NCBI GenBank assembly: GCA_030649135.1
Contig: JAUSGI010000008.1
Span: 32,001-96,000 of the forward strand
Source of the DNA: a bacterium
GTDB taxonomy: Bacteria; Patescibacteriota; Minisyncoccia; Phycocordibacterales; Zambryskibacteraceae
Direction: 5' to 3'
DNA: 64,000 bases
Positions 1 through 15,435 of the stretch are shown here, piece after piece. The stretch's first letter is position 1. Each line of letters starts with the position of its first letter. The position numbers were made by a program, and so were the translations under genes. Below the pieces are notes generated by a model, which did not search any database, was not told where the DNA came from, and saw only the letters and a program-made list of their open reading frames with translations.

Positions 1-52
1 ACTGTACTTGTCCTGTTAGCTTATATTACACAATAAAAAAAATTTAAAAAAA

Positions 53-3000
53 ATGACAAAACTCATGGGGGTAATTCTTAGCTTAGTGCTAATGGCCGGG
101 TCGGTCCAAGCGGCCACCTTAGATGACATAGTATTTACAGAAATAATGGCGACTCCCAATGCTGTGGCTGATGCCGACGGCGAGTGGATTGAAGTTCAGA
201 ACAATTCTTTAAGCCCAGTAGATATTGGAGGTTGGATATTAAACGATGGTTCAGATCACACTATTTCCGGACCTTATTCTATACCAGCGGGTGAGAAAGC
301 GGTAATCTGTCGCGACAATGATTCCTCTGTAAATGGAGGAGTTAAATGCCATTATCAATCAGTTATGGTCCTAACTGACATTGGTAAAACTCTGCAACTT
401 CTTGAGGGGGTGACCACTATAAACGAGGCTACATACGGAGACACTGCTGGAAATTCGGGAAAATCAGTTTATATTCCTAGTGGAAGTTTCGAGTCTGTTA
501 GTCAATTTGGAAATGGCGATTATGGAACTCCGGCTGGGAATGGTGCATCAATTGGAACTCATTCCTACGCTTCGATTCAGATTGCAATTGATGCGGCAAT
601 TTCCGGTAACACGATAGATGTTGGAGCGGGGACTTACGCGGAGAATGTTTCGCTTGACGGAAAGACAAATCTTACAATTCAAGGCGCTGGAGAGGCAACC
701 ATTATTGAACCAGCAAGCGGAATTGGTTTTGCAATTAAAAATTCAAGCGGCATAACAATAAAGAATCTTAAAATACATACCACAGGAACCAATGCCCATG
801 GTGTCTGGGTTGCGGGAACTCCGAATGGCGGAGCAACGGCGGTAACTGGTCTTACCGTACAAGATGACACCATAGTTGTTGACGGTTATTCCAGCGGCAT
901 TTACGCCGAACAAGTTGATACAACACCTCATTCTGGCTGGCTAATAACAGGGAACACTATAACTGTAAATCCTGGCGCTGGTGTTACTGGTGATGGAATG
1001 GACTTGCACGATGTGTCGGGTTCGGAGGTAAGCTACAACACAATAATTCTGAATACTCCGACTGATAGCACAAATGTTCTCTGGACAAGCGAATTGTCAA
1101 ATCTTTCTAGTCTCATATTCTCCAATAACACCATCAGTGGCTCAAGCGGTAGTGAGATAGCAATCCTAACTGATTTTCTGGATGCTCTAGCAGATACATC
1201 AATTACCACCGTAACAGTAAGTGGAAACACGTTCAGTAATTGGGGTTCTAGGGCCCTAAGAGTCGGGACGGCTAACGGAACCGGAGCGGTGACGGAAATC
1301 GCAGTAAATTCAAACATATTCCAAATGGCCGCCGACACAACAGAAGTTATCGGCGGCACGGCTGCGTCAAGTGCGACTGGTAGCGGCAATATCTTCAATG
1401 TTAGTGGGACAGCAAAAATTCAAAAAGCGGTAGACGGGGCATTTTCTGGCGACACGATAAATGTCGCAGCGGGGACTTATGACGAACAGGTCGTAATAGA
1501 TGGAGAAGACCTGATATTACAAGGTGTTGGTGATACAACTATCATCCGACCATCTGCACCCGCAACGCTTACCCAGACTTATACCTTCCCAGCCGGAACT
1601 TTTTGGTCTGGCACAACTGCATCAAGTATTATCCTAGTGGAAAATGCCAGCGCTGTTACTATAAAAGATCTTAAAGTAGACGGTATTAATGTTACCAGTT
1701 TGCCCTTAACAGGTTCGCCTGACAGACTCGTCGGAGTTCTTTTGGGAGTATCTTCAGGTACCATTGATAATGCTACGGTCACTTCCATTAAAACAGCTGG
1801 CTATGCAAACCGTACATATGGCATTGAAGTAAGTGGCGCTGATAGTGGCACTTACAGCGTTGAAGTTAAAAGTTCTCATATAACAGACTGGGCTCGTAAT
1901 GGGATTGTTGCAGATGGAACTAATCTTACGGCCAACATCAATCACAACACGCTTGTAGGTCCTGGTACTATCTCTGGGCAGGTCGCTAACGGCATTCTTT
2001 TCATTGGTGGAGCTGCTGGTAACACTACAAGTAATACTATCAGCGGAATGCACTACAACGCAGATCCAGTATCTCGCAGTGCCGGTATCTTGATTTATGG
2101 CGCAACCACGGCCGGAATCTTGATAGACCAAAATGACATTTCCGATACGGATGATGGAATAAATTTGTCGGCCAGTTCTCATAACGCGACTGTCAGCAAC
2201 AACAATCTGCATAATAATCTAGAAGTAGGTATACAACTAGAAAACGGGACAGCAAACAACGCCATAACTGGGAACACAATTGTTAATAATACAATGGCTG
2301 GTATACGTTTTGGCGGTGCAGGTGATCCGGTTCCCGCGGAAGCGGATACTCCACCTGGGGCAGGTAATGTTGCTAATGATAAAAATACGATTACTGGTAA
2401 CGCGAACGGTATAGTAAATTACGATACGGGTCTTGGACAGATATTTGATGCCGCCAACAACTGGTGGGGCAACGTGAGCGGACCGTTCAACACTACAAGC
2501 AATCCTTTGGGAACCGGTGATTCTATTTCCGACAATGTAAACTTTGTTCCGTGGTATTCCACTAGCGGAATGACGACGCTTGTTTCCGCAAACATGATTG
2601 CTTACAATACCGCCTTGGATGCCGTTAGTCAGACGGACTACACGACTGCAAGCTGGTCTGCCTACCAAGCAATTGTGACTGCCAATACGAGGACCGACCA
2701 AAACACTCAAACTGAAGTTGATGACGCGACGGCCGCAATCACTACCGCGCAACTTGATCTGATTGCTATTGCCGACCTCACTGATTACAACACCGCTTTA
2801 GACGCAGTTGTTGAAAGCGATTATACGACCGAAAGCTGGGCAACGTATCAAGCTATTGTGGACGCCAATGTGGTAACCGACCAACATACCCAAGCTGAAG
2901 TTGATACAGCAATCGATAATATTACCATCGCGCAAGATGATTTAGTGGCAACACTGGACGTAGCAAAAACAACGGCACATGAAGCTCTTACAACTGCTCG

Positions 3001-3985
3001 CGCGTTATATACAGATACAAACTACACCGCTGAAAATCTAGTGGTCTTAAACGGATTCAAGTCGGATGGCGATATCGCGATTGACTCCGCTTCAGACTTA
3101 GCCGGAGTGTCCACAGCGCAGAACACAGCTACTGCTGGAATGGCCGGTGTGTTAAAAAATACACAAACAGCTCCTGACGATGACGGAAATGCGACAATGG
3201 ACTCTGACACAACGGAAGTGGTTATCACAGACCCGGATCAACCTGTTGACATTACAATTGAAAGTGGCACAGAAAATCCGACAATTGATGTTAGTGCATT
3301 TATTACCGATGGAATAGGAATATTGCCGGAGATTACAATCAATTCCGACGTAGCGGATGTTATAATTCCGGATAGTACGACAGTGACTGGCCCGACTGAT
3401 TGGGATGGGGTCATTAGCGTACCAACGGCTACCACTACTACTGGCACTGCCCCAGCTGGGTTTAGCGTTGGCGGTACTGTTATCTCGGTCGGTTCGTCTC
3501 AAGGAACATTAACCTTCAGTAATCCCGTTACGATATTACTTGCAGGTGTTACTGGAACAGTTGGCTACAAACCAGCTGGTTCAGATACTTGGCAGACGAT
3601 AACCAATGTTTGTGCCGACCCGTATGCAACTCCAGGCAACCCTCCAGCCGGTAGCGAATGCGCAATATCAAATGGTACTGATACTAAAATTGTCACCTTC
3701 CACTTCACGGAATTTGGAGAATTAGATTCTATTCCAGCTACGCCTATCCCTCCTCGTTCAAGCAGGGCAGGAGACTTTTCTCCGGCCGCGCGCAGAGCAA
3801 TCTTGGCAGCGACACCCAATGCATCAGCAGTATCGGTTGTAGGTCAAGTCCTTGGAGCCTTCACTGAAGATGAAAGACAGGCTCAAATTGTGTCCGTCCG
3901 CGGGCAACTTATAGAGAAGATAAATCAACTAATCGGTCTCTTGCGGGTGCAACTTGCAGCGGCCATAACAGCAGGCGATCAATAA
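53..3985 (+). CDS. Large secreted surface protein: signal peptide, lamin-tail domain (LTD), right-handed parallel beta-helix (NosD-like) repeats, WWG..PWY cap module, two FIVAR-like ~55-aa tandem repeats, conserved C-terminal tail
   Basis: N-terminus MTKLMGVILSLVLMAGSVQA is signal-like. The segment IVFTEIMATPNAVADADGEWIEVQNN...GGWILND is typical of LTD. There are many GxxxxxN/T beta-helix rungs. The motif WWGNVSGPFNTTSNPLGTGDSISDNVNFVPWY is shared with the 7764-9692 protein. Repeats of form YNTALDAV..DYTT.SW..YQAIV.AN..TDQ.TQ.EVD.A are FIVAR-like. Confidence 0.85.
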   Translation: MTKLMGVILSLVLMAGSVQAATLDDIVFTEIMATPNAVADADGEWIEVQNNSLSPVDIGGWILNDGSDHTISGPYSIPAGEKAVICRDNDSSVNGGVKCHYQSVMVLTDIGKTLQLLEGVTTINEATYGDTAGNSGKSVYIPSGSFESVSQFGNGDYGTPAGNGASIGTHSYASIQIAIDAAISGNTIDVGAGTYAENVSLDGKTNLTIQGAGEATIIEPASGIGFAIKNSSGITIKNLKIHTTGTNAHGVWVAGTPNGGATAVTGLTVQDDTIVVDGYSSGIYAEQVDTTPHSGWLITGNTITVNPGAGVTGDGMDLHDVSGSEVSYNTIILNTPTDSTNVLWTSELSNLSSLIFSNNTISGSSGSEIAILTDFLDALADTSITTVTVSGNTFSNWGSRALRVGTANGTGAVTEIAVNSNIFQMAADTTEVIGGTAASSATGSGNIFNVSGTAKIQKAVDGAFSGDTINVAAGTYDEQVVIDGEDLILQGVGDTTIIRPSAPATLTQTYTFPAGTFWSGTTASSIILVENASAVTIKDLKVDGINVTSLPLTGSPDRLVGVLLGVSSGTIDNATVTSIKTAGYANRTYGIEVSGADSGTYSVEVKSSHITDWARNGIVADGTNLTANINHNTLVGPGTISGQVANGILFIGGAAGNTTSNTISGMHYNADPVSRSAGILIYGATTAGILIDQNDISDTDDGINLSASSHNATVSNNNLHNNLEVGIQLENGTANNAITGNTIVNNTMAGIRFGGAGDPVPAEADTPPGAGNVANDKNTITGNANGIVNYDTGLGQIFDAANNWWGNVSGPFNTTSNPLGTGDSISDNVNFVPWYSTSGMTTLVSANMIAYNTALDAVSQTDYTTASWSAYQAIVTANTRTDQNTQTEVDDATAAITTAQLDLIAIADLTDYNTALDAVVESDYTTESWATYQAIVDANVVTDQHTQAEVDTAIDNITIAQDDLVATLDVAKTTAHEALTTARALYTDTNYTAENLVVLNGFKSDGDIAIDSASDLAGVSTAQNTATAGMAGVLKNTQTAPDDDGNATMDSDTTEVVITDPDQPVDITIESGTENPTIDVSAFITDGIGILPEITINSDVADVIIPDSTTVTGPTDWDGVISVPTATTTTGTAPAGFSVGGTVISVGSSQGTLTFSNPVTILLAGVTGTVGYKPAGSDTWQTITNVCADPYATPGNPPAGSECAISNGTDTKIVTFHFTEFGELDSIPATPIPPRSSRAGDFSPAARRAILAATPNASAVSVVGQVLGAFTEDERQAQIVSVRGQLIEKINQLIGLLRVQLAAAITAGDQ

Positions 3986-3998
3986 CTCCCAAACGCTC

Positions 3999-4514
3999 CT
4001 ACGCGTGGTTGTATAACAGTTTAAGTTTCTCAAGCCCTCGGTGTGCTTGCACGGCCATAGCATTCTTTGATTGTCCGGTGATAAGAGCCATTTCTTTGAG
4101 TGACAGATTTTGCACGTACCGCATGCGTATCACTTTCTGGTATTTTGTCGGAAGATGTTGAATTAATAGGAGTGCCGCTTTCCCGTCTAGGGTGTTGAAA
4201 AGAAGTTCGGAATGTTCAACGCTCGGCTCGTAGCCTTTTTCAAGTAGGACATCAAGGGAAGTGGTTTTGTGCTTCCGATATTCATCAATGATAAGATTAT
4301 TGAGGACGTGGTAGAGAAAAGCTTTCATGACATCAATCTTCCCTCCTTTCACGAGGTAGGCCCATGTTTTCATGAAGGTGTCTTGTACTAAGTCTTCGCC
4401 CCTAGCATGGTCGTGTATCTTGAAAAAGGCATGTGCATTGAGTCCCTTTTCGTAGTCATTGTGTGCTAGGGTTAATACTGTCTGTTGGCGCACCTTCTGT
4501 TTGGGGGTCATCAT
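3999..4514 (-). CDS. RNA polymerase sigma factor, ECF (sigma-70 family) subfamily
   Basis: Region 2 DLVQDTFMKTW and region 4 LSLKEMALITGQSKNAMAVQAHRGLEKLK are present. Size 171 aa. Confidence 0.85.
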   Translation of the reverse strand: MMTPKQKVRQQTVLTLAHNDYEKGLNAHAFFKIHDHARGEDLVQDTFMKTWAYLVKGGKIDVMKAFLYHVLNNLIIDEYRKHKTTSLDVLLEKGYEPSVEHSELLFNTLDGKAALLLIQHLPTKYQKVIRMRYVQNLSLKEMALITGQSKNAMAVQAHRGLEKLKLLYNHA

Positions 4515-4768
4515 ATATTAAGCATTAAGCCGAATCTCGGCGTGTCTTATTACAAAATTATTACAATCTGACTGCGACAAAGAGAGAAATAACCATATCT
4601 ATAGGCCTTAAATACCGTTAGGTCTGACCCTTTTTCTCTACACAGATATTACAGTAAGTATAACATACTTGGGATATCAGTGCGTTATGTAATAAATAGA
4701 GCTTTCTAGCGGCCTTATTGGTATAGAAACGACTTAATCCCACCGTTGACATTTCTGGATTAAATATC

Positions 4769-5152
4769 ATGCAAACACCCAAAACAATACTAATCATAGA
4801 AGATGAGAAAAGTCTTCGCGATGCCATCGTGGACATTCTACGTCTCAAAAACTTCTTGTCTCTTGAGGCAAAAAATGGTAGAGAGGGGGTGGAGCTCGCG
4901 CTCTCCAAACACCCTGACCTCATTTTGCTTGACCTTATTATGCCGGAGATGGACGGTATAATTGCGCTCAAAAATATTCGAGAAGATGCTTGGGGGAAAA
5001 AAGTTCCCATTATTATTCTAACGAATTTGAGTGCGACCAATGAACAGTTTGGGGATGATAAGGCGACGCTTAAGGCAACGCATTATTTAATTAAATCGGA
5101 TTGGAAGCTGCATGATATCGCAAAGAAGATCGAAGAAATATTGGAAACTTAA
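4769..5152 (+). CDS. Stand-alone response regulator receiver (CheY-like)
   Basis: ILIIEDEKSLRD, the phospho-acceptor context DLILLDLIMPEMDG, and a Lys-containing C-terminus. 127 aa with no output domain. Confidence 0.85.
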   Translation: MQTPKTILIIEDEKSLRDAIVDILRLKNFLSLEAKNGREGVELALSKHPDLILLDLIMPEMDGIIALKNIREDAWGKKVPIIILTNLSATNEQFGDDKATLKATHYLIKSDWKLHDIAKKIEEILET

Positions 5153-5160
5153 AATACTCC

Positions 5161-7182
5161 ATGAATAAAAAAACTATCATCTCTGCGTCCGATGATATAA
5201 TCCTAAATCTCAAAGTTTCGGCTAAGGAAAAAGAAATTGTCAGGCGCAAACTTGCTGTAACAGCAGAGAGGCTTGCTGCGACGGCAGTGAAACTTGCCAT
5301 AACAGCTAAGGAAAGAGAAAGTGTGAGGATTAAGCTAGCGGTGACTGCCGAAGAAAAGGAACATGTCAGGCTTAAGTTAGTGGTGACCGCAGAGAAGCTT
5401 GCTGTAATCGCAGAGAAGCTTGCTGTGACTGCCGAGGAAAAGGAAAGTGTCAGGCGCAAACTTGCCGTGACGGCAGCCAAACTTGCAGTAACGGCAGCTA
5501 AACTCTCCGCAACTACTGAGGAAAAAGAAAGTGTGAGACGCAAGAAGCTAGTCGCGACAGCAGCTAAGCTTGCTGTAACAGCAGAGAAGCTTGCTGCGAC
5601 CGCCAAAGAAAAGGAGAGTGTCAGGCGCAAACTTGCTGTGACCGCAGCCAAACTTGCTGTGACAGCAGAGAAGCTTGCCGCGACGGCCAAGGAAAAAGAA
5701 ATTGTTAGGCGTAAACTCGTCGTGACGGCAGAAAAGCTAGTCGTGACGGCAGCCAAACTCGCCGTGACAGCAGAGAAGCTTGCCGCGACGGCAGCCAAAC
5801 TCGCAGTAACTGCTAAGGAAAAAGAAATTGTTAGGCGTAAACTTGCAGCGACTGCTAAGGAAAAAGAAAGTGTCAGGCGCAAGCTGGTAGTGACTGCTAA
5901 GGAAAAAGAAAGTGTCAGGCGTAAGCTGGTGGTGACAGCCAAGGAAAAGGAGAGCGTCAGGCGTAAGCTGGTGGTGACAGCAGCTAAACTTGCTGTAACT
6001 GCAGCGAAACTCAAAAAGTCGTACGAAACACTCGAGAAGAAAGTGCTTGAACGAACCAAGAGTCTAGAAATGTCCAGAGCAAAGGAAGAGGCGGTTTTGC
6101 TCTCGATTGGTGACGGACTTCTTGTGACTAATGAAAAAGGAAATGTTATTATTATAAATAAGACAGCTGAAAAACTACTCGGTATTAAGAGTAAAGAAGC
6201 TATGGGAAAGGTCTTTTCCGAAGCCGTTCTTTTGGTAGATGAAAAAGGGGTGCCTATTCCGTCAGAGAAACATCCCGTAAGGATGGCTCTAGTAAGCGGC
6301 ATTACTACTGCCACTACTATTGTAGGTTCCACTTACTATAATGTGCGGAAAGATAAAACGAAATTTCCTGTGGCAATTATGGTCACGCCCGTTATTCTTG
6401 ACGGGAAGGTGATTGGAACAATTGAAGTTTTTCGAGATATTACCGCCGAGCGGGAAATTGATAAAGCCAAAACCGAATTTGTTTCCCTTGCTTCACACCA
6501 GCTCCGCACCCCGCTTTCTACGGTCAATTGGTACGCGGAAATGCTTCTGGCCGGAGATGTGGGGGAGTTGAATGAAAAACAAAAGAAATATTTAGATGAG
6601 GTATATCGCAGTAATCAGCGAATGGTTGAATTGGTAAACGCCCTTTTGGATGTCGCTTCTCTTGAAATTGGTACCTTTGTGGTTGAGCCGGAACCAACCG
6701 ATATAATCGAACTAGCGCAAAGTGTCATAGACGAACAAAAACCGCAGATTGAGGCCAAAAAAATAGTATTTTCTTTTTCATTCGGGAAAAATATTTCACT
6801 TATGCAGGCCGACCCCAAACTCCTGCGAATGATAGTGCAAAATATCTTGTCAAATGCGGTAAAATATACTCATGAAGGCGGGAAAATCGATATGTCGATT
6901 TCCTTAGCGGACAAAAATAATATTCTTCTGAAAGTCGATGATACGGGCTACGGCATACCCCAAAATCAGCAAGATAAAATATTTACCAAGCTGTTTCGGG
7001 CCGATAATGTCAGAGATAAAGACACGGACGGCACGGGCCTCGGGCTCTATATTGTAAAGTCAGTCGTTGAAAATTCTGGCGGGAAAATCTGGTTTAAGTC
7101 CGTGGGCGGGGAAGAAAATAAAGGCACCACCTTTTATGTATCGCTGCCTTTGGATGGGGCGAAAAAGCCGGCTAATATATAA
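5161..7182 (+). CDS. Sensor histidine kinase with N-terminal heptad-repeat coiled coil, PAS domain, HisKA and HATPase_c, no transmembrane segment
   Basis: H-box FVSLASHQLRTPLSTVNWYAEML. ATP-lid motifs N box (NAVKYT), DDTGYGIP and GTGLGLYIVK. A PAS-like block after the repeats. The N-terminal ~270 aa are repeats of AEKLAVTAKEKESVRRKLAVT. Confidence 0.85.
   Translation: MNKKTIISASDDIILNLKVSAKEKEIVRRKLAVTAERLAATAVKLAITAKERESVRIKLAVTAEEKEHVRLKLVVTAEKLAVIAEKLAVTAEEKESVRRKLAVTAAKLAVTAAKLSATTEEKESVRRKKLVATAAKLAVTAEKLAATAKEKESVRRKLAVTAAKLAVTAEKLAATAKEKEIVRRKLVVTAEKLVVTAAKLAVTAEKLAATAAKLAVTAKEKEIVRRKLAATAKEKESVRRKLVVTAKEKESVRRKLVVTAKEKESVRRKLVVTAAKLAVTAAKLKKSYETLEKKVLERTKSLEMSRAKEEAVLLSIGDGLLVTNEKGNVIIINKTAEKLLGIKSKEAMGKVFSEAVLLVDEKGVPIPSEKHPVRMALVSGITTATTIVGSTYYNVRKDKTKFPVAIMVTPVILDGKVIGTIEVFRDITAEREIDKAKTEFVSLASHQLRTPLSTVNWYAEMLLAGDVGELNEKQKKYLDEVYRSNQRMVELVNALLDVASLEIGTFVVEPEPTDIIELAQSVIDEQKPQIEAKKIVFSFSFGKNISLMQADPKLLRMIVQNILSNAVKYTHEGGKIDMSISLADKNNILLKVDDTGYGIPQNQQDKIFTKLFRADNVRDKDTDGTGLGLYIVKSVVENSGGKIWFKSVGGEENKGTTFYVSLPLDGAKKPANI
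5209..6015 (+). repeat. Tandem array of ~63-nt (21-codon, 3x heptad) near-identical repeats inside the histidine kinase gene
   Basis: Direct reading shows the same unit recurring. One instance is gcagagaagcttgctgcgaccgccaaagaaaaggagagtgtcaggcgcaaacttgctgtgacc. There are three consecutive copies of AKEKESVRRKLVVT near the 3' end. The long ORF on the opposite strand (5091..6332) is a repeat shadow. Confidence 0.8.
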
Positions 7183-7190
7183 TTAATCAT

Positions 7191-7661
7191 ATGTCCAACA
7201 AATCTGTGAAAAAGCAAACCATTCTGGTAATAGAGGATGAGAAACCTCTGCTTGAGGCCATTAATGACAAACTTGAAAAAAGCGGTTTCGGTGTGATTGC
7301 GGCCCGTAGTGTGGAGCAAGCGTTCAACGCGAATATCGCGAAAAACGGCCTAGGTGTCATAAATGTTCGAAGCATCGAGCAAGCGCTTAATTATCTTGAA
7401 AGTTTGGAACGAGTAGACGCAATTTGGCTGGACCATCACCTTTTGGGCAAAGAAGATGGTCTTGATTTTGTAAAAAAATTTAAAGCAAATGGCGGGCGCT
7501 GGAGTAAAATTCCTGTCTTCGTAGTTTCGAATGCCGCCAGTCCCAAAACTGTCAAGTCTTATGTAGATTCCGGTGTGAGCAAGTACTATGTCAAATCCGA
7601 CCATCGACTCGATGAAATTATCAAAGACATTCAATCTTTTTTAGACCATTCGGCGAAATAA
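7191..7661 (+). CDS. Response regulator receiver with internal 17-aa tandem duplication
   Basis: ILVIEDEKPLLE and the acceptor Asp in AIWLDHHLLGKEDG. The beta2-alpha2 segment is present twice: GFGVIAARSVEQAFN and GLGVINVRSIEQALN. Confidence 0.8.
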   Translation: MSNKSVKKQTILVIEDEKPLLEAINDKLEKSGFGVIAARSVEQAFNANIAKNGLGVINVRSIEQALNYLESLERVDAIWLDHHLLGKEDGLDFVKKFKANGGRWSKIPVFVVSNAASPKTVKSYVDSGVSKYYVKSDHRLDEIIKDIQSFLDHSAK

Positions 7662-7763
7662 ACCGGTTGTAATATTTCCGTCTCTGGAACGGCATTTATG
7701 GCAAGGGTAGGTAGTAAACTCAACTATTCGCTCAAGTCATTAATTAAATAACTAGTAAAACAT

Positions 7764-9692
7764 ATGGAAAAATCTAATAAGGGTTCAATTATACTAACCG
7801 TGCTGACCGTCTCCCTTGTAATCGGTTTTCTGGGGTCAATGGTCGCGTATGCATTCGTAAGTCCAGCGACAGTCAATCTTGGAACAGCGGCTGATTTTGC
7901 GATTCTCTCGAAAGCGGGAATCACTAACGTTCCCACCTCTGTCATTACTGGGAATATCGGAACAAGTTTAGATGAAGCCAGTACTGATACTGCTTTCGCA
8001 GGTATCACGTGTGGCCAAGTGACGGGGTCAATATACTCGTTCAACTCGACAGGTCCTCTCCCTTGTGTGTTAGCTGACTCTGTATTGGCTACAACTGTAG
8101 TAAGTACGGCCGTAGGCGATATGGAAACTGCAATAACCGATGCCAACAGCCGAACACCTGATGATATCGACCTTGCATTCAATGCGGGCGTAGGATGTGC
8201 TCTTGGCACTTGTGACCTCGCGGGGCTTACTCTCGCTCCCGGCGTCTATACATTCACAGCTCCTGGCAATGTCATCATCACAAACGATGTTACCCTCTCG
8301 GGTAGCCCAAGTGATATTTGGATATTCATCATCCCGGGGACTCTTGATATCAGCTCTGCCAAGAAGGTTCTTCTAACCGGCGGCGCAGTATCTGACAATG
8401 TCTTCTGGTCAGTTGCTGGCGCGACTCAACTTCAAACATCTTCTACGTTCGAGGGAAATATCCTTGAAGCAGGAACGCCTCTTGCGATGCTCTCCGGTGC
8501 TACACTACACGGAAGAGCACTGTCGAAATTCGCAGTTACGCTCGATGCCAATACCGTTACGACTCCTTCCGCCACACCACCTCCGACAACCGGTCCGGTT
8601 TTCGTGGAAGAGGGGGTTGCGAACGGTACTCTTGATTTAGGAGAACTATTCTTCAACACCGTTCAATCAGCAATCGATGACGCAGGTACTCTTTCCGGCG
8701 ACACCATTCACGTTACCGCAGGAACTTACAACGAAAGTATCGTAGTTAACAAATCATTAACGCTCAATTCCGTGGGAGCAGTCATAAACGGCTCGGCGGG
8801 ACAAAATGGTGTTTCTATCGGGGCAAGTGATGTTACGGTTAACGGCTTCGAAGTTACTTCTAGCGGTCTTAGTGGAGTCTACGGTATCGCTGAAACAACG
8901 CCTGTCAGTAACACAGTTATTACCCACAACGTCGTTCACGGCTTTCCCGCATTGGGTATTGCGTTGGCGGCTGGTTCTGTCAATGCAGAAGTTACAACTA
9001 ACGAAGTCTACGATGTGTACGGAGGCATCTATCTTTCTACCGGCGCAATCGGTGCACTTGTAGACGGTAACGATGTTCACGACTTAGTAAGCGGTGCTGG
9101 TCCTGACCAGGGAGCCGCGGTCGCGTTTGAAGGAAACAACACAGATGTTTCGGTAACCAACAACACTCTCACAAATAACGCTTTCGGTCTCTATGTGTGG
9201 TCTGCGTTCGGTTCTGACTTTACCGGCACTGTAGTTGAGCATAACAAATTTGTAGGCAACACAGACGGTGTGGAAAATACCAATACTGGTATTATCAACG
9301 CTTCTCCGAACTGGTGGGGAGCTGTCACAGGTCCGACTCATGCCACCAACCCTAGCGGTCTAGGCGATGCGGTGAGCGACAATGTTACTTTTGACCCATG
9401 GTATGTGGACGAGGCTATGACCACGCTGTCAAATGCCCCGGCTCCAGCTCCCGCTCCAGCACCAGAACCAGAACCAGAATCAAGGGGTTCAAGGTCCGGT
9501 GACTCACGAAGAGTTTCTGCTCAAACTGCCAATGTAGTGGTGGGCGAAATCCTCGGCATCTTTACCGAAGCTGAAAGACTGGCACAGATTGCGACTGTTA
9601 AGGTTCAACTGTCCTCTCTTATCCGCCAACTGATCGGTTTATTACAGGCCCAATTGATTACGGCGCTTCAGACAGAGATTCGGAACTATTAA
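7764..9692 (+). CDS. Secreted/anchored protein: N-terminal TM or signal anchor, DUF3494 (ice-binding-protein-like) domain, right-handed beta-helix, WWG..PWY cap, PAPAPAPEPEPE linker, conserved C-terminal tail
   Basis: LGTAADFAILSKAGITNVPTSVITGNIGTS and DNVFWSVAGATQLQTSSTFEGNILEAGTPLAMLSGATLHGRAL are the canonical DUF3494 start and end. WWGAVTGPTHATNPSGLGDAVSDNVTFDPWY and the tail ILGIFTEAERLAQIATVKVQLSSLIRQLIGLLQAQL match the 53-3985 protein. Confidence 0.85.
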   Translation: MEKSNKGSIILTVLTVSLVIGFLGSMVAYAFVSPATVNLGTAADFAILSKAGITNVPTSVITGNIGTSLDEASTDTAFAGITCGQVTGSIYSFNSTGPLPCVLADSVLATTVVSTAVGDMETAITDANSRTPDDIDLAFNAGVGCALGTCDLAGLTLAPGVYTFTAPGNVIITNDVTLSGSPSDIWIFIIPGTLDISSAKKVLLTGGAVSDNVFWSVAGATQLQTSSTFEGNILEAGTPLAMLSGATLHGRALSKFAVTLDANTVTTPSATPPPTTGPVFVEEGVANGTLDLGELFFNTVQSAIDDAGTLSGDTIHVTAGTYNESIVVNKSLTLNSVGAVINGSAGQNGVSIGASDVTVNGFEVTSSGLSGVYGIAETTPVSNTVITHNVVHGFPALGIALAAGSVNAEVTTNEVYDVYGGIYLSTGAIGALVDGNDVHDLVSGAGPDQGAAVAFEGNNTDVSVTNNTLTNNAFGLYVWSAFGSDFTGTVVEHNKFVGNTDGVENTNTGIINASPNWWGAVTGPTHATNPSGLGDAVSDNVTFDPWYVDEAMTTLSNAPAPAPAPAPEPEPESRGSRSGDSRRVSAQTANVVVGEILGIFTEAERLAQIATVKVQLSSLIRQLIGLLQAQLITALQTEIRNY

Positions 9693-9732
9693 CACCGATA
9701 CTCTCACTCTGGACTGATTAAAAGAACCACCC

Positions 9733-9765
9733 CGGCATCACGCCGGGGCGGTTCTTTATCCTCAC
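9733..9765 (+). terminator. Rho-independent terminator after the beta-helix gene
   Basis: ccccggcatcacgccgggg hairpin followed by cggttcttt. Confidence 0.5.
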
Positions 9766-9783
9766 TAAATAAGGTAAAATGAC

Positions 9784-10716
9784 ATGATGCGCCGAAAACT
9801 AAAGAATACCTTTATACCGCATCGCGGTAATCACCACCACCCCCATATACTGCGGCATAAGTCTCTCTCTGCCGTCTTGACTGTCGTAGTGCTCCTCGAG
9901 TTTACGATGCTTCTAAGTCCATTCGTGTGGCCGCGTCTTGGTATAGAGCTTGCGACGGTATTGCCCTCTGTGGTTACCCTTCTTACCAATAATGCCCGCG
10001 CGGAGGGCCACATCGCGAATGTAAAAGTGAACGATATTTTGACTCTCGCCGCGCAGGCCAAAGCCGATGACATGGCCTCCAAGGGATATTTTTCCCATAT
10101 AGGTCCAGATGGTACCAAACCGTGGTACTGGTTTAAGCAGGCAGGGTATCAGTATCAGTATGCCGGTGAAAATTTGGCGGTGAACTTCGCTAATTCGGAG
10201 GGGGTAGTAAAGGCTTGGCAGAATTCTCCCATGCATAATCTTAATCTTCTTGGCCCGCGCTATACCGAGACCGGAGTAGGTATTGCCACCGGTATGTACA
10301 AGGGTAGAGAGGCTGTGTTTGTGGTGCAGTTTCTCGCTTCATCACAGAAGACAGAGGCGGGTGTAGTAAATGCTACCTCCACCTTGCCTAAAGTATCTGG
10401 TATTCCCAGCCCTCTGAATATGGTGAATCCATTGGTGCTCGGCGTATCCACGGAGGATACCGGCAACCAATCCATATGGTTGCGCATTATCTCATCGCCA
10501 CGAACCTATGGCACGTATGCACTTTTCGTACTCACCTTCCTGTTCTTACTGGTACTTCTTACCGGTTGGGGCAGGCATCGTCCTAGGGCGTTAGTGTATG
10601 GAGTAATGATGGTGGGGCTACTGGCTGGAGTAATATTTATGAACAAGTATCTGACATTTCCGCAACCGGAACTCTCGGAAGATACTCAGAATGGGGCATC
10701 ATTTAACTCGCGGTAA
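9784..10716 (+). CDS. CAP/SCP/PR-1-like domain protein with His-rich N-terminus and TM segments
   Basis: GYFSHIGPDG...AGENLA...VKAWQNSPMHNLNLLGPRYTETGVGIA fits CAP family motifs. Hydrophobic helices at the N- and C-terminus. Confidence 0.65.
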   Translation: MMRRKLKNTFIPHRGNHHHPHILRHKSLSAVLTVVVLLEFTMLLSPFVWPRLGIELATVLPSVVTLLTNNARAEGHIANVKVNDILTLAAQAKADDMASKGYFSHIGPDGTKPWYWFKQAGYQYQYAGENLAVNFANSEGVVKAWQNSPMHNLNLLGPRYTETGVGIATGMYKGREAVFVVQFLASSQKTEAGVVNATSTLPKVSGIPSPLNMVNPLVLGVSTEDTGNQSIWLRIISSPRTYGTYALFVLTFLFLLVLLTGWGRHRPRALVYGVMMVGLLAGVIFMNKYLTFPQPELSEDTQNGASFNSR

Positions 10717-10718
10717 TT

Positions 10719-11819
10719 ATGGCAAGCGGCAGGAAAGTGGATAAACAGTTTTTGCTCATCTCCGTCGTTTTGATAGTGGTCGGTTTTTTTATCTTCAGCT
10801 CGGCCTCCCTTGCTCTACTGGCCAAAGAAAGTTCGAATTATTCAAGCGTAGCTTTCTCTCAAACGGTTTTCGGGCTTTTTCTCGGTACGGTGGCCATGAT
10901 AGTGGTCTCGCGTTTGGACTCTAAAAACTGGAAGAAAATGGCTTTCTGGCTTTTATTGGGCGCTATCATTCTCAATGTTTTGGTATTGGTGCCGGGGATC
11001 GGGTTCGAGCACGCCGGCGCCAGGCGTTGGATTATACTCGGTGGTATTTCTTTCCAGACATCAGAAATATTAAAATTGGCTTTCATTATCTACTTCGCGG
11101 CCTGGGCCGCCGGAGTCAAGGAGAAGATGAAAACTTTTGCCTGGGGTTTCTTGCCCCTCCTCGTTCTTTTTGCCGTCTCGGCCATTCTGCTCTTGAAACA
11201 GCCGGATACCGATAATCTTATTCTGATTATCTTCGCGGGCATGGCTATGTTTATCGCCGCGGGAGGGAAGTGGCGATACGTTTTTATGATTATACTGGCC
11301 GGCGTGGTGGGGCTTACCCTTCTGGCTTTTATGCGGCCGTACGTGATGCAGCGCATTACCACTTTCTTTGACCCGCAGACGGATGCCCAAGGTGCCAGCT
11401 ACCAAGTCCAGCAGTCTCTCATTGCTGTCGGTTCCGGTGGCCTTTTCGGTCGCGGATTCGGTCAAAGTGTTCAGAAATTCACCTATCTTCCCGAGCCGGT
11501 CGGGGACTCGGTTTTTGCCGTGGCGGCCGAGGAGTTCGGTTTCGTGGGTTCCGTTTTCTTGTTGTTAATCTTTGTCCTTTTCGCTACCAGAGGCCTCAAG
11601 ATTGCATCCGGGACGACAAGCGTCTTTGCTAGACTCACGGTGGTTGGAATTGTTATAATGATTGTCTCCCAAGCATTCGTCAATATCGGCGCCATGCTCG
11701 GAGTGATTCCACTCTCCGGTATTACTTTGCCTTTTGTTAGCCATGGGGGCACCTCCCTTTTTGTCACTCTTGTGGAAGTGGGTATCGTGCTCTCTATCTC
11801 TAGAACTCGAGGGTCTTAA
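10719..11819 (+). CDS. ftsW: SEDS-family cell division protein FtsW/RodA
   Basis: Polytopic membrane protein with DSVFAVAAEEFGFVGSVFLL and PFVSHGGTSL motifs. Adjacent to murG. Confidence 0.85.
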   Translation: MASGRKVDKQFLLISVVLIVVGFFIFSSASLALLAKESSNYSSVAFSQTVFGLFLGTVAMIVVSRLDSKNWKKMAFWLLLGAIILNVLVLVPGIGFEHAGARRWIILGGISFQTSEILKLAFIIYFAAWAAGVKEKMKTFAWGFLPLLVLFAVSAILLLKQPDTDNLILIIFAGMAMFIAAGGKWRYVFMIILAGVVGLTLLAFMRPYVMQRITTFFDPQTDAQGASYQVQQSLIAVGSGGLFGRGFGQSVQKFTYLPEPVGDSVFAVAAEEFGFVGSVFLLLIFVLFATRGLKIASGTTSVFARLTVVGIVIMIVSQAFVNIGAMLGVIPLSGITLPFVSHGGTSLFVTLVEVGIVLSISRTRGS

Positions 11820-11829
11820 ATCCTAAATC

Positions 11830-12975
11830 ATGCGTATTCTATTTACAGGTGGTGGCTCTGGAGGACATTTCTATCCGATAGTCTCTATTGCCGAAGAACT
11901 AAACTCTCTTGCGAAGGAGAAGAAACTTCTTGGGCTTGAACTTTTTTTTATGTCTCCTACTCCTTATAACCCGGGAGTACTTTTCGAGAACGGTATTATT
12001 TATAAGAAAAATAGCGCCGGCAAATTACGTCGCTCCGCCAATTGGTGGACCTTTCTGCCTAACTTCTTGGATTTATTTAAAACAGGGTGGGGGATTATCT
12101 CTTCGCTTTATATGGTCTACATGCTCTACCCCGATGTCATCTTCGGCAAAGGTGGCTATGCGAGTTTCCCGGTACTGGTGGCGGCTCGTCTCCTGCGTAT
12201 TCCCGTGGTTATCCATGAATCGGATACTGTTCCGGGCAGAGTAAATTTGTGGGCTGGTAAATTTGCCGCCATCGTCGCCGTTTCTTATAAGGAGGCGGCG
12301 AAATATTTCCCGGCTACTATAGTGGCTCATACCGGCCAACCGGTACGCAAAGATGTGGCTTTGCCCATTACTTCCGGCGCCCGTGAATTTCTAAAAATTG
12401 AAAACGATGTGCCGGTTATCCTGGTCTTGGGCGGCTCACAAGGAGCGCAAAAGATAAATGATATCGTCCTGGAGGGTCTCAAGGAATTGGTGGAGAAGTA
12501 TGCGATTATCCACCAGACCGGTAAAAATAATATCGCAGAAGTCAGAGCCACCGGGGAGGCCGTACTACTTAGCTCTATTCATAAAGACAGATACAAAGCG
12601 TTCGATTATCTTAATGTTTTGGCGCTTCGGATGGCAGCCGGAGTCGCCTCCGTGGTTATCTCGCGCGCGGGCTCCACAATCTTTGAGATTGCGGCGTGGG
12701 GGCTGCCTTCCATCATTATTCCTATCAGCGAAAAAGTTAGTCGAGACCAGCATTCCAACGCTTTTGCCTATGACCGCGCCGGCGCTTGCGAGGTGATAGA
12801 AGAAAATAATCTCACTACCAATATTCTTGCTTCGGAGATTGCGCGTCTGGTTTCCAATGAGTCCGAGCGGGCGAAGATGAAAGCGGCGGCCAAGGCATTC
12901 TACAAACCAGACGCCGCGCGTTTGGTGGCCGAAGAAATTCTTAAAATTGCTCTAGGGCATGAAATTGAAAAATAA
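11830..12975 (+). CDS. murG: UDP-N-acetylglucosamine--N-acetylmuramyl-(pentapeptide) pyrophosphoryl-undecaprenol N-acetylglucosamine transferase
   Basis: MRILFTGGGSGGHFYP; VIHESDTVPGRVN; GT-B architecture. Confidence 0.9.
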   Translation: MRILFTGGGSGGHFYPIVSIAEELNSLAKEKKLLGLELFFMSPTPYNPGVLFENGIIYKKNSAGKLRRSANWWTFLPNFLDLFKTGWGIISSLYMVYMLYPDVIFGKGGYASFPVLVAARLLRIPVVIHESDTVPGRVNLWAGKFAAIVAVSYKEAAKYFPATIVAHTGQPVRKDVALPITSGAREFLKIENDVPVILVLGGSQGAQKINDIVLEGLKELVEKYAIIHQTGKNNIAEVRATGEAVLLSSIHKDRYKAFDYLNVLALRMAAGVASVVISRAGSTIFEIAAWGLPSIIIPISEKVSRDQHSNAFAYDRAGACEVIEENNLTTNILASEIARLVSNESERAKMKAAAKAFYKPDAARLVAEEILKIALGHEIEK

Positions 12976-14161
12976 TAATGCAGCCACCGCTAGTAGCGGG
13001 GTCCCGCCAAAGGCGGTGATAGTACGAATAGCGCCTTCACCGACAGGGAATCTACATGTCGGTACCGCTCGTACCGCGCTATTTAATTTTCTCTTCGCCA
13101 AGCACAATGGCGGTAAGTTTCTCATTCGTATAGAAGATACTGATTTAGAAAGGTCAAAAAAAGAATATGAAAAAGATATTCTGGAAGGGCTCGAATGGCT
13201 AGGTATCACATCCGATGAGCCTGTGATGCGACAAAGTGATCGGCTGGAGATTTATGGGAAATATGCTAAGCAATTGATAGCCAAAAATCTTGCCTCCGAA
13301 GTGGATGGCGCCGTAATCTTGAAAAATGCTCAAACAGAAATCTCTTTTAACGACCTTATAAGAGGAGAAATCAAATTTGAAGATGTGCCTAGTGAACTGG
13401 TTATTCTAAAGTCAGACGGTACCCCAACTTATAACTTTGCCGTTGTTATTGATGATTACGAAATGGGCATTACTCATGTCATAAGAGGGGAGGACCATAT
13501 TTCTAATACACCAAGACAAATATTGGTGATAGAGGCGCTTGGGTTTAATCGTCCGCAGTATATACATATACCGATGATTCTTGCTCCTGACCGCTCTAAA
13601 TTATCAAAAAGACATGGGGCAACTTCACTTCTGGAATATCGAGAAAAAGGATATCTCCCTCAAGCGATGTTCAACTATCTGGCTCTTCTGGGCTGGAATC
13701 CCGGCACGGAACAGGAAATATTTAGCATGGCAGAACTGATTAAAGTTTTTGATATTGCCAAAATTCACAAAGGCGGGGCGATTTTCGATGAGAAGAAACT
13801 GGAATGGGTGAATAAGCAACATATAAACCTGCTTTCTCCGGAAGAGAAGATAAAAATTATTGCCCAAGAGTTTGATGTCAAAAAGATTCCGGAACTCGAT
13901 ACAGAAAAAATTTGCTGGAAAGATACTAGCTCGGAAGAAACGCTCGAACATCTCATTGAGTCGAAAAAAATTATTGAAAATGGTGATGACCTGATGCCTT
14001 ATGCCGAGAGGGAAGGGAAGGGTAATGTGTTGTGGCCAGTACGCTATGCTCTGTCGGGCGAGGAAAAGTCTCCGGACCCGTTTACCCTCATCGCTATTCT
14101 TGGCAAAGATGAGTCAGTCAAAAGGATAGAAAAAGCTATTGAATCTTTAAGTCAAAAATGA
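12959..14161 (+). CDS. gltX: Glutamyl-tRNA synthetase (short, ~400 aa)
   Basis: Class I HIGH-like PSPTGNLHVGTARTALFN and KMSKS-like KLSKRHG. Confidence 0.85.
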   Translation: MKLKNNNAATASSGVPPKAVIVRIAPSPTGNLHVGTARTALFNFLFAKHNGGKFLIRIEDTDLERSKKEYEKDILEGLEWLGITSDEPVMRQSDRLEIYGKYAKQLIAKNLASEVDGAVILKNAQTEISFNDLIRGEIKFEDVPSELVILKSDGTPTYNFAVVIDDYEMGITHVIRGEDHISNTPRQILVIEALGFNRPQYIHIPMILAPDRSKLSKRHGATSLLEYREKGYLPQAMFNYLALLGWNPGTEQEIFSMAELIKVFDIAKIHKGGAIFDEKKLEWVNKQHINLLSPEEKIKIIAQEFDVKKIPELDTEKICWKDTSSEETLEHLIESKKIIENGDDLMPYAEREGKGNVLWPVRYALSGEEKSPDPFTLIAILGKDESVKRIEKAIESLSQK

Positions 14162-15435
14162 AGAAAGTCATTTTAGCATTCGCATTATTTTTGGCTACTA
14201 TTCCGGTGATGAGTATGGCTGCCAACACAGGCGAGTTGGAACGGCAGATTGAACAAGTGAGGAAGGAGCGGGAAGTTCTCTTAGAAGAGCAGAAGAAACT
14301 TCAGACAGAGCTCGAAGCTGTCAATAAAGAAAGCCAGACTCTGGGAAGCGCCGTTAAGTCGCTTAACGCCACGAAGTTGAAGCTAGCCAAAGACATTAGT
14401 ATTACCCAGTCGAGAATCACTTCGACCAACCTAACCATACGGTCGCTCGAAAACACCATGAGCGAGAAAGAGCGACAAATAGTCGCTCATCGCAAAGCTA
14501 TCGCGCAGACTCTCTCCACGCTTTCGGAATATGATTCCCGCCCGCTAGTACTAAACCTGCTTGCTTCCACCGAACTCTCGGACCTTTGGAAGGATAGAAG
14601 CCAACTTGAAGGATTGAACAGTCATCTGGCGGAAGAGATTCTCGCCCTGCGCGAGACTCGCAAAATGCTTAGTCAAGAAAAAGAAAAAAAGGAAAGGGTG
14701 AAGGAAGAGCAGGAGAATCTCAAGGGGCAATTAAGTGGACAAAAATCAGTAGTCGAAGAGAATAAAAAAGCCAAAGAAATTATTCTCGCGGAGACCAAAA
14801 ATAAAGAATCTGAATATCAGAAAATGCTTGCCGAAAATCTGGCCAGGCAGAAAGAGTTTGAGGAGGATTTGTTCCGGCTTGAATCTGAACTTAATATCAC
14901 TCTTGACCCCTCGCTTATTCCCGTACCGCGAAAAGGCACTCTGTCCTGGCCGGTGGAAAATGTCTTTATCACCAGTCCGTTTGGCATGCGCTCGGCGGGA
15001 TTTCATGGCGGGACAGACTTCAGAGCTTCTGTGGGTACCCCAATTTTGGCTATAGCCGGTGGCACAGTCGAGGGGGCGGCCAATTCCGATGACCAAAAAG
15101 GATGTTACTCTTTCGGTCGGTGGATTCTTATCAGACATTTCAACGGACTTTCGAGCGTTTATGCGCATCTTTCCGCTTCATTGGTTAAGGCCGGACAGAA
15201 AGTGGGGAGTGGGCAGATTATCGGATATTCTGGAGGGTATCCTAGGGCGTACGGTTCCGGTAATTCCAGAGGACCGCATCTTCATCTCGGACTCTTTTCT
15301 TCCCAAGGTGTGGAAATTCGCTCTTTCACTTCGCAAAGATACAGAGATACCGGCTCGGGGTGTCATAATGTTCCTATTCCGGTTTCCGACATCAAGGCCT
15401 ATCTTGACCCGCTTGCTTACTTACCGGTTCTTTAA
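14158..15435 (+). CDS. M23-family metallopeptidase with signal peptide and long N-terminal coiled coil (EnvC-like)
   Basis: MKKVILAFALFLATIPVMSMA. Coiled-coil heptads. GTDFRASVGTPILAIAGGTV...HLHLG is the M23 active site. Confidence 0.85.
   Translation: MKKVILAFALFLATIPVMSMAANTGELERQIEQVRKEREVLLEEQKKLQTELEAVNKESQTLGSAVKSLNATKLKLAKDISITQSRITSTNLTIRSLENTMSEKERQIVAHRKAIAQTLSTLSEYDSRPLVLNLLASTELSDLWKDRSQLEGLNSHLAEEILALRETRKMLSQEKEKKERVKEEQENLKGQLSGQKSVVEENKKAKEIILAETKNKESEYQKMLAENLARQKEFEEDLFRLESELNITLDPSLIPVPRKGTLSWPVENVFITSPFGMRSAGFHGGTDFRASVGTPILAIAGGTVEGAANSDDQKGCYSFGRWILIRHFNGLSSVYAHLSASLVKAGQKVGSGQIIGYSGGYPRAYGSGNSRGPHLHLGLFSSQGVEIRSFTSQRYRDTGSGCHNVPIPVSDIKAYLDPLAYLPVL

Follow-up and report, generated by a model that had tools for sequence, protein, structure and literature searches.

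A probable ECF sigma factor regulon beside a variable surface-protein slot in a Patescibacteria genome

A stretch of 64,000 nucleotides of contig JAUSGI010000008.1 (assembly GCA_030649135.1; called here the window) carries, at positions 53-10716, a sigma factor of the extracytoplasmic function (ECF) type, a histidine kinase (HK) with two stand-alone receivers (REC1 and REC2), two secreted proteins (G1 and G2) and a membrane-anchored CAP-domain protein. A preliminary description of this DNA had taken these seven genes for one accessory island of surface proteins under dedicated regulation, and the question raised by the locus is whether they are a unit at all. Comparison with related loci indicates that they are not: a conserved core of sigma factor and two-component genes stands beside a slot for surface proteins that is subject to recombination, with G1 inside it and CAP at its edge. 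The core is probably an ECF sigma regulon for the cell envelope or surface of a Patescibacteria (Paceibacterota-like) lineage, with the kinase and its receivers as candidate input and with exchange of modules in the slot.

Genes were called by listing open reading frames (ORFs) and translating them, and gene content and coordinates agreed with the preliminary description (lengths in amino acids, aa):

53-3985, forward strand: G1, a secreted modular protein, 1310 aa
3999-4514, reverse strand: sigma, an ECF-type sigma factor with regions 2 and 4, 171 aa
4769-5152, forward strand: REC1, a stand-alone receiver, 127 aa
5161-7182, forward strand: HK, a cytoplasmic histidine kinase, 673 aa
7191-7661, forward strand: REC2, a stand-alone receiver, 156 aa
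7764-9692, forward strand: G2, a secreted protein, 642 aa
9784-10716, forward strand: CAP, a membrane-anchored CAP/SCP-domain protein, 310 aa

Of the two secreted proteins, both of which had been called giant, G2 is better described as large. The locus is no local assembly accident, since an independent Logan contig (L081, SRR13727527) matches the window at 100% identity over 11.7 kb; homologues of the proteins encoded here are named Patescibacteria, Paceibacterota or Parcubacteria. Domains were called at the Pfam gathering cut-offs and the curated NCBIfam cut-offs; Rfam gave zero matches in positions 1-11000 of the window. Related loci were collected by searching a set of genomes, one for each species, with the kinase core, and 80 sigma-anchored metagenome loci (L082-L161) were added for the analysis of the regulon.

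The sigma factor matches Pfam Sigma70_r2 and Sigma70_r4_2, with no extension, and scores 54.8 bits against the TIGR02937 cut-off of 42.9. Having only the sigma-2 and sigma-4 regions, and 171 residues in a class of ~170-200, it belongs to the ECF factors (group 4); the public gene call, at 170 aa, is one residue shorter. It fell below the cut-off of every named ECF equivalog in NCBIfam (PG0214/GFO_1088, SigM, SigW, SigZ and others), the best score being 68 bits against 130 for NF058625. Orthologues at 63-82% identity were found in 8 genome loci and the 80 metagenome loci. The gene is monocistronic, and no anti-sigma gene can be co-transcribed with it, because the end of G1 lies only 13 nt from the sigma stop codon. 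Among its neighbors in relatives are DUF948/YtxH-like proteins, none with an anti-sigma domain.

Alignment of the regions upstream of the sigma orthologues revealed a common motif, TGTAAT followed after 16 nt by CGGC, ~10-14 nt before the start codon. Three exact copies occur in the window, where ~0.1-0.2 would be expected from ten specified bases, and each lies between genes and points toward the gene that it precedes, namely sigma, REC1 or G2 (scores from a position weight matrix, PWM, trained only on sites from other loci):

4529-4554, reverse strand: predicted autoregulated sigma promoter, ending 14 nt before the ATG, 23.4 bits
4688-4713, forward strand: motif 55 nt upstream of REC1, 24.0 bits
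7668-7693, forward strand: motif 70 nt upstream of G2, 29.1 bits, the best site in the window

No other site in the window scored above 10.3 bits, and shuffled windows peaked at 9-19 bits. Copies with one mismatch were at chance level (4 found, 3.5 expected); a true signal stands out from the background only by exact matches and by PWM scores. A generic scan for sigma-70-type promoters gave no more matches than chance. No site of at least 2 bits was present in the 284 nt that precede G1, a sequence taken from the Logan contig, or in the region before CAP. By this criterion G1 and CAP would not be sigma targets, and the seven genes do not form a single regulon. The claim of dedicated regulation is supported for G2, which has the best copy of the motif, and not for G1 and CAP.

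The distribution of the motif follows that of the sigma factor. Close loci contain 16 strict sites in 183 kb, against 0.6 expected by shuffling, and distant loci only five in 989 kb, a density of 8.7 sites per 100 kb in loci of the sigma clade versus 0.5 in distant ones. Sigma has the motif in the 110 nt before its gene in 61 of the 80 metagenome loci, and seven of the eight genome-locus orthologues have it upstream. When 182 sites from ~95 related loci were classified by the first gene downstream, this gene was sigma at 67 sites, an ice-binding-like or PG_binding-fn3 protein at 35, a PAS-like protein of 99-201 aa at 22 and REC1 at 14; DUF948-like (four), YGGT-type (four) and Transgly_assoc proteins (three) followed, and the remaining sites preceded smaller gene groups or single genes, or (14 sites) had no downstream ORF. 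Twenty of the 34 ice-binding-like ORFs in the sigma-anchored metagenome loci are preceded by the motif, most of the others being the second gene of a tandem pair, and the ice-binding-like genes of loci L002 and L010 also have it upstream.

The shape of the motif, a TGTAA(T/C) -35 element and a CGxC -10 element 16 nt apart, fits the geometry of ECF promoters such as that of Bacillus subtilis sigma-X (tGtAAC-N17-CGaC). Only ~10 nt separate the end of the motif from the start codon of sigma and of the small PAS protein, implying nearly leaderless transcripts. Autoregulated promoters are typical of ECF sigma factors (PMC7826278). Judging from position and resemblance, we infer that the sigma factor recognizes TGTAAT-N16-(A)CGGC promoters and that it would transcribe its own gene as a nearly leaderless mRNA, giving positive feedback, and, as its direct targets here, the REC1-HK-REC2 operon and G2. 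In relatives the same promoter would drive ice-binding-like proteins with sortase or peptidoglycan anchors, small PG_binding-fn3 proteins, small PAS proteins and small membrane proteins of stress type.

Such a regulon resembles those of the envelope-stress factors sigma-X, -W and -M of B. subtilis and of Streptomyces sigma-E with CseBC, which share sigma regions 2 and 4, autoregulation from a TGTAA(C/T)-like -35 and a CGxC -10 element and a regulon of wall and membrane proteins; sigma-E, too, has an adjacent two-component system. In contrast to sigma-X, -W and -M, which have membrane anti-sigma factors, and to CseB, a DNA-binding activator of sigE transcription, the window locus has neither an anti-sigma gene nor a DNA-binding regulator, and its sigma mRNA is apparently nearly leaderless.

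Two kinds of motif-bearing genes in relatives stand apart from those of the window. In L006 (990-2348) and L163 (4078-5273) the motif precedes a small secreted protein, which in L006 ends in an xPNTG motif and a membrane segment, with a sortase gene directly after it; sortase anchoring would then lie inside the same sigma regulon in these two relatives. In L090, L092, L093, L095, L102, L109, L121, L123 and others, a protein of 99-201 aa is divergent from sigma and has the same motif, and there is no kinase cassette. It combines PAS matches at or below threshold with a C-terminal coiled coil, has no detectable similarity to the PAS domain of the kinase and no homologue in the window, and is a candidate for an alternative regulator of sigma.

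If G1 and CAP are outside the regulon, what holds them next to it? The two secreted proteins are built alike. G1 consists of a signal peptide, a lamin-tail domain (aa 20-96; LTD, PF00932, 41.6 bits versus a cut-off of 34.3), two right-handed beta-helix blocks, a WWG..PWY cap (aa ~800-835), FIVAR-like repeats (aa ~846-1000), a C-terminal domain (aa 1041-1230) and a tail. G2 consists of a signal or anchor peptide, a DUF3494 domain (aa 47-266), a NosD/AlgE-like beta-helix (aa 300-510), a cap (aa 516-553), a disordered linker rich in Pro, Ala, Ser and Arg (aa 555-600) and a tail. Beta_helix (PF13229) scored 62.2 bits in G1 and 39.5 bits in G2, above the cut-off of 25.9, and the LTD, DUF3494 and Beta_helix domains named in the preliminary description were thus all recovered. 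FIVAR (PF07554) failed, with 18 bits versus 29.2 on the excised repeat region of G1 and no report for the whole protein. BLASTP aligned the two proteins at 33% identity over 160 aa at the end of the beta-helix, including the pattern WWG..GP..NP.G.GD..SDNV.F.PWY, and at 49% over the terminal 71 aa, bearing out the shared body, cap and tail. Both are modular secreted proteins, and the view that this is no plain housekeeping region is supported. The window holds no further copy of cap or tail.

The close relative L162 shows what can happen at this position. Its FtsW, MurG and CAP proteins are 94%, 93% and 81% identical to those of the window, and its genes run epimerase, HTH_5, a 79-aa ORF, a subtilase/HYR/Ig protein of 1612 aa, CAP, NYN, FtsW, MurG, GltX and M23 peptidase. 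The last 250 residues of its giant protein are 67% identical to G1 aa 1041-1307, and the last 51 residues are 86% identical to the G2 tail; homology to the window at the DNA level sets in at 9569, within the G2 tail, and extends across CAP. Upstream of G1, too, lies a fragment that encodes the C-terminus of an epimerase, so the two genomes share the epimerase and CAP borders and differ in what lies between: sigma, the kinase cassette and G2 are present in the window slot and absent from that of L162. A third state is seen in L165, in which sigma (68% identical), a different PAS kinase, a receiver and an OmpR-type regulator stand directly before CAP, FtsW, MurG, GltX and the M23 peptidase. The regulator (REC and Trans_reg_C; 3163-4082, reverse strand) lies with a HisKA fragment between the sigma and kinase genes and CAP, and a DNA-binding regulator may belong to the circuit in some lineages.

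We propose that the interval from the epimerase gene to the conserved CAP-FtsW-MurG block is a variable slot for surface proteins, taken up here by G1, G2 and CAP, in which heads, C-terminal domain and tail would be exchanged between genes and between genomes. The protease-headed giant of L162, at the same position and with no sigma or kinase cassette there, shows that head swapping is real and bears out the check for head swapping and presence/absence that had been suggested. The accessory island itself survives in part: the surface-protein slot is variable, and sigma with REC1-HK-REC2 is conserved and syntenic in many relatives and not accessory. CAP, for its part, is a member of the conserved CAP-FtsW-MurG-GltX-M23 block rather than of an island, with a genetic link to the tail-bearing proteins as well.

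This linkage concerns the following features:

3824-3955, forward strand: G1 tail, aa 1258-1301 (profile match to 1258-1301 of 1306 in P0121, which is G1 from its fifth codon)
9567-9686, forward strand: G2 tail, aa 602-641, predicted as a single alpha-helix of 40 residues
9730-9748, forward strand: terminator-like hairpin in the gap between G2 and CAP, G+C-rich with seven GC pairs, followed by a T-rich tract
10435-10452, forward strand: VLGVST of CAP, aa 218-223
10719-15435, forward strand: FtsW, MurG, GltX and M23 peptidase genes, in an order shared, with CAP, by L162 and L165

The tail has the consensus GQVLGAxT..(E)AQIA.IK.QL..LI.QLI..LQAQL and matches no Pfam or NCBIfam family. In the model of G2 it is a lone helix after the disordered linker, with hydrophobic residues spaced 3-4 apart, a pattern that points to a short coiled coil. 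Searching 1.84 billion proteins with a tail profile gave 106 representative clusters, almost all of them matched to within a few residues of their C-terminus. Partner domains in 92 clusters were PG_binding_1 (35), Bact_surface_Ig-like (22), Beta_helix (22) and Ice_binding (12), and further MBG, HYR, InlK_D3, LTD and pectate-lyase-like adhesive domains. The profile found no copy in 160 kinase- or sigma-anchored loci, where the ice-binding-like orthologues use other anchors: those of L002, L101, L104, L105, L117, L122, L149 and L157 end in xPNTG, a transmembrane segment and a basic C-terminus, and other motif-driven ones in PG_binding_1. The G2 tail thus stands at the position of a wall anchor. 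Like sortase LPXTG and PG_binding_1 anchors, it is C-terminal and comes after VLGxxT and a low-complexity linker; unlike them, it is an amphipathic heptad helix linked to CAP, with no sorting motif, membrane segment or known wall-binding fold. Both G1 and G2 end in the helical tail and lack an LPXTG-like motif, a hydrophobic segment and a basic end.

Some further observations concern the same motifs. VLGxxT opens the tail, occurs 3-6 residues before the xPNTG sortase signals of related ice-binding-like proteins, and is present in about half of the CAP homologues (P0222-P0341), just before SSPRTY and the C-terminal membrane helices. In P0018, P0145 and P0206 the tail helix is followed by PGFP(N/I/D)TGF, three residues and a stop, with no membrane segment, as if a sortase motif had lost its anchor or the gene call were cut short.

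The CAP protein has an N-terminal transmembrane segment, an external CAP domain (PF00188, 59.9 bits versus 21.1), VLGVST and two C-terminal transmembrane segments; it scored below the NCBIfam cut-offs for DalA (47.8 versus 200) and YkwD (92.5 versus 171). Its gene ends 3 bp before FtsW. In six of nine contexts examined (G2 in the window, L162, L163/L164, L168, L170 and L172), a CAP gene follows the tail-bearing gene on the same strand at 35-105 bp; the background is six CAP ORFs in ~1.8 Mb of other sequence from the candidate phyla radiation (CPR), about one per 300 kb. In the distant loci L045, L060, L061 and L064 (Lloydbacteria-type), a CAP-domain gene also lies 2-6 kb upstream of the orthologous kinase.

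Adjacency of this kind could arise without any partnership of the proteins, at a recombination hot spot before a conserved gene in which tail and CAP 5' flank serve as a homology arm. We regard this as a serious possibility, short of an explanation that we would adopt: the homologous DNA of the window and L162 sets in within the tail and takes in CAP, CAP heads a conserved FtsW-MurG block in the window, L162 and L165, and in L167 surface proteins without the tail precede CAP genes as well. Against it, L163, L168, L170 and L172 keep the tail-CAP pair although the genes after CAP differ and FtsW is missing; with four of six contexts lacking FtsW, the pair is not simply carried along with the FtsW block.

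As part of our main reading, we propose that the tail, a disordered linker and an amphipathic helix, would retain or oligomerize its protein at the cell surface, possibly through the neighboring CAP protein. On a bolder view, tail and downstream CAP protein would be an undescribed non-covalent retention or sorting system of CPR bacteria, an alternative to sortase and peptidoglycan-binding anchors, with heads (ice-binding-like, beta-helix, subtilase, Ig-like) swapped by recombination within the tail and VLGxxT as a shared recognition or wall-crossing element. We put this bolder view forward as a speculation that is unlikely to hold. Several facts tell against a link between tail and CAP: the hairpin parts G2 from CAP, three of the nine tail contexts (G1, L169 and L171) have no CAP gene, CAP homologues (>1,200 in CPR) far outnumber tail proteins (106 clusters), and G1 has the tail but neither the motif nor a CAP neighbor.

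The other part of the question is how the conserved core might be controlled. Both receivers match Response_reg and nothing else in Pfam, that is, they have no output domain; REC1 has the acidic pocket, D55, T85 and K108, and REC2 the phospho-acceptor D81, S113 and K135. With receivers of this kind and no NepR-like ORF, the locus is not a PhyR-NepR-EcfG partner switch. HK has an N-terminal coiled-coil array followed by PAS, HisKA and HATPase_c, contains no hydrophobic or membrane segment, and scored below the NCBIfam cut-offs for WalK (238 versus 725 bits), PnpS (227 versus 400) and PhoR (182 versus 334).

Hundreds of CPR loci encode the kinase core, at 41-79% identity. The order REC1-HK-REC2 is kept in 14 close loci (core identity 62-79%), and in distant CPR the kinase is found with a stand-alone REC2 orthologue, often with REC1-like receivers, and with no sigma. 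Bare receivers are therefore the norm for this kinase family, and the non-standard wiring that had been thought special to the locus is the rule across CPR. Flanks of the cassette in relatives range from RuvA, Mur ligase, SecY and Adk to ice-binding-like proteins, sortase and small PG_binding-fn3 proteins; an ice-binding-like gene comes right after REC2 in the window, L002, L005, L103, L105, L117 and L161. Sigma adjoins the cassette in eight of 12 close genome loci with enough flank, in varying orientation and spacing, and in eight of 41 informative metagenome loci; in a further 12 of these 41, an ice-binding-like gene is directly divergent from sigma.

Because no anti-sigma gene is present and the receivers have no DNA-binding domain, contact between a receiver and sigma offers itself as the link: the cytoplasmic PAS kinase would phosphorylate REC1 and/or REC2, and a receiver would act on sigma by protein contact. 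Known links between two-component systems and ECF factors are transcription (CseBC and sigma-E), partner switching (PhyR) and direct stabilization (PorX-SigP; PMC7826278). In the last case PorX, a response regulator without a DNA-binding domain, directly stabilizes the ECF factor SigP. This is a precedent for receiver control and the closest analogue in function, which the putative kinase control of sigma may resemble. As described there (Kadowaki 2016 in PMC7826278), the PorXY-SigP system of Porphyromonas gingivalis (ECF228) also has an ECF factor without an anti-sigma factor, a regulator that contacts sigma and a regulon of surface and secretion proteins, and it differs in that PorX has a PglZ-type effector domain and that PorX and PorY are orphan genes. 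In the window locus, instead, a soluble PAS kinase shares an operon with two bare receivers, beside sigma. A literature search turned up no paper on a Patescibacteria ECF sigma factor with a two-component system.

The cassette might, however, be only an output of the regulon, with sigma set by transcription alone or by another factor, such as the small PAS protein or a binder of an extra TGTAAT that only sigma promoters have, 11 bp upstream of the motif. We find this rather doubtful, although several observations that speak against our own reading fit it. Kinase and REC2 are conserved as a pair in CPR well outside the lineage with sigma nearby, and sigma is missing within 9 kb of the cassette in three close loci, so the kinase may be a sigma target only and not a controller. 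In L001, L009 and L012 REC1 keeps its motif with no sigma gene beside it, and many sigma loci, 22 by our count, have a motif-driven PAS protein beside sigma in place of the kinase cassette. On the other side, sigma and cassette remain adjacent in the eight close genome loci in spite of changed orientation and inserted genes, which suggests selection for linkage, neither receiver shows another evident output, and PorX-SigP is a precedent for direct control. We retain kinase-receiver input as a putative part of the probable sigma regulon.

Two repeat features distinguish the cassette:

5224-6027, forward strand: heptad array of HK, 268 residues, ~38 heptads of KLAVTAx and EKExVRR with one extra residue
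7284-7409, forward strand: internal duplication of 21 aa in REC2, aa 32-52 and 53-73, GFGVIAARSVEQAFN / GLGVINVRSIEQALN

The duplication, which had already been noticed, is fixed in the close clade and absent from distant REC2 orthologues. KLAVTAx and EKExVRR heptads make up the N-terminal 290 residues of HK, and tandem repeats with periods of 21, 42, 84 and 171 bp lie at 5248-5981 of its gene. Array length, measured in 79 kinase orthologues with both flanking anchors (from P0342-P0461), ranged about seven-fold, from 36 to 268 residues (5 to 38 heptads), with 29 distinct values, the window array being the longest; heptad repeats, variable length and lack of a hydrophobic segment confirm the cytoplasmic PAS kinase with a repeat coiled coil of the preliminary description. 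Modulo 7, 74 of the 79 lengths agree; the other five, among them that of the window, have one residue more. A register kept in this way argues for a continuous coiled coil that feeds the PAS and DHp domains, with a predicted stalk ~5-40 nm long (at ~0.15 nm per residue). Signaling-helix and coiled-coil linkers of other kinases also are helical coils that lead into PAS or DHp with conserved heptad register; the coil of HK differs from them in being N-terminal rather than between sensor and DHp, in its two alternating heptad modules and in its ~7-fold range of lengths.

In the window array the extra residue is at RRKKL, a possible stutter. A run of N inside the orthologous array of L012 (~9640-9745) shows such arrays to be hard for short-read assembly, so some published lengths may be wrong. 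An antisense ORF of 413 aa (5091-6332, reverse strand) crosses the array and is almost certainly a by-product of the repeat and no gene; the same is almost certainly true, as regards its being no gene, of the antisense ORF at 4618-5040 (reverse strand) opposite REC1.

What the regulon would produce in the window, apart from sigma and the cassette, is G2. Its structure was modeled with a mean pLDDT (predicted local distance difference test) of 80.6, the second domain resembling AlgE4/AlgE6 and NosD. An adhesin or host-attachment role, as had been suggested, may be supposed for these presumably surface-located proteins. It is also conceivable, if unlikely, that G2 is a true ice-binding protein that protects the cell from freezing as part of a general stress regulon and is no adhesin. 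The head scores 161 bits for Ice_binding/DUF3494 (PF11999; cut-off 28.7) and 194 bits for NCBIfam IBP_CFB, in Foldseek it superposes on FfIBP (4nu2) with a template-modeling (TM) score of 0.93, an rmsd (root mean square deviation) of 1.8 and 41% identity, and genes co-regulated in relatives encode membrane proteins of stress type (Transgly_assoc/GlsB, YGGT and DUF948/YtxH-like). Yet the IBP_CFB score is below its cut-off of 400 bits, and DUF3494 is common in organisms of non-freezing habitats and is found fused to adhesin-type domains. G2 shares the fold of its head with FfIBP and a multi-domain secreted make-up with SfIBP_1 (6bg8), and differs from known DUF3494 proteins in its fusion to a NosD/AlgE-like beta-helix and a coiled-coil tail, in its CPR genome and in its predicted ECF control; our literature search found nothing on DUF3494 that deals with CPR.

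A last reading concerns the motif itself and the additional hexamer of sigma promoters:

4560-4565, reverse strand: second TGTAAT of the sigma promoter, 11 bp further upstream

This second TGTAAT (window 4549-4565 with the -35 hexamer, reverse strand) is at least 80% conserved in 59 unique sigma-promoter sites (L002-L011, L082-L161), is confined to these promoters, being missing from those of REC1, ice-binding-like and PAS genes, and might serve for the binding of a regulator or offer sigma-4 a second contact. Across the window, two-hexamer sites are about as frequent as expected (6 versus 5.2 at two mismatches), and a distal pair, TGTAAT-N5-TGTAGA at 4637-4653 (reverse strand), was rejected as it has no CGxC at the right spacing. 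That TGTAAT-N16-CGGC is the operator of a DNA-binding regulator, for instance an OmpR-type protein on direct repeats, and no sigma promoter is very unlikely: the TGTAAT-N5-TGTAAT repeats one helical turn apart do look like a Pho box and L165 does have an OmpR-type regulator beside sigma, but the tandem hexamer is found only at sigma promoters, the other ~115 sites show a single hexamer with CGGC at a fixed spacing of 16 nt and a fixed short distance to the start codon, as promoters do, and the density of the motif tracks the sigma clade.

To our knowledge, almost nothing is known of gene regulation in CPR/Patescibacteria or of how they build the surface with which they contact their hosts. An ECF envelope regulon and modular anchored surface proteins are known kinds of systems; the tail-CAP module is possibly new. 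The locus offers a testable circuit, with an ECF sigma factor, a defined promoter and a small regulon that, over ~95 loci, is centered on ice-binding-like surface proteins, and with a candidate input in the soluble PAS kinase and its two bare receivers, in a setting free of an anti-sigma factor. The kinase stalk is a natural length series, seven-fold in range with the heptad phase kept, that could be used to study signal transmission through coiled coils, and L162 shows heads and tails exchanged at a fixed chromosomal slot. Finally, the unannotated tail module, found in ~100 clusters and linked to CAP, may be a new way to hold proteins on the CPR cell.

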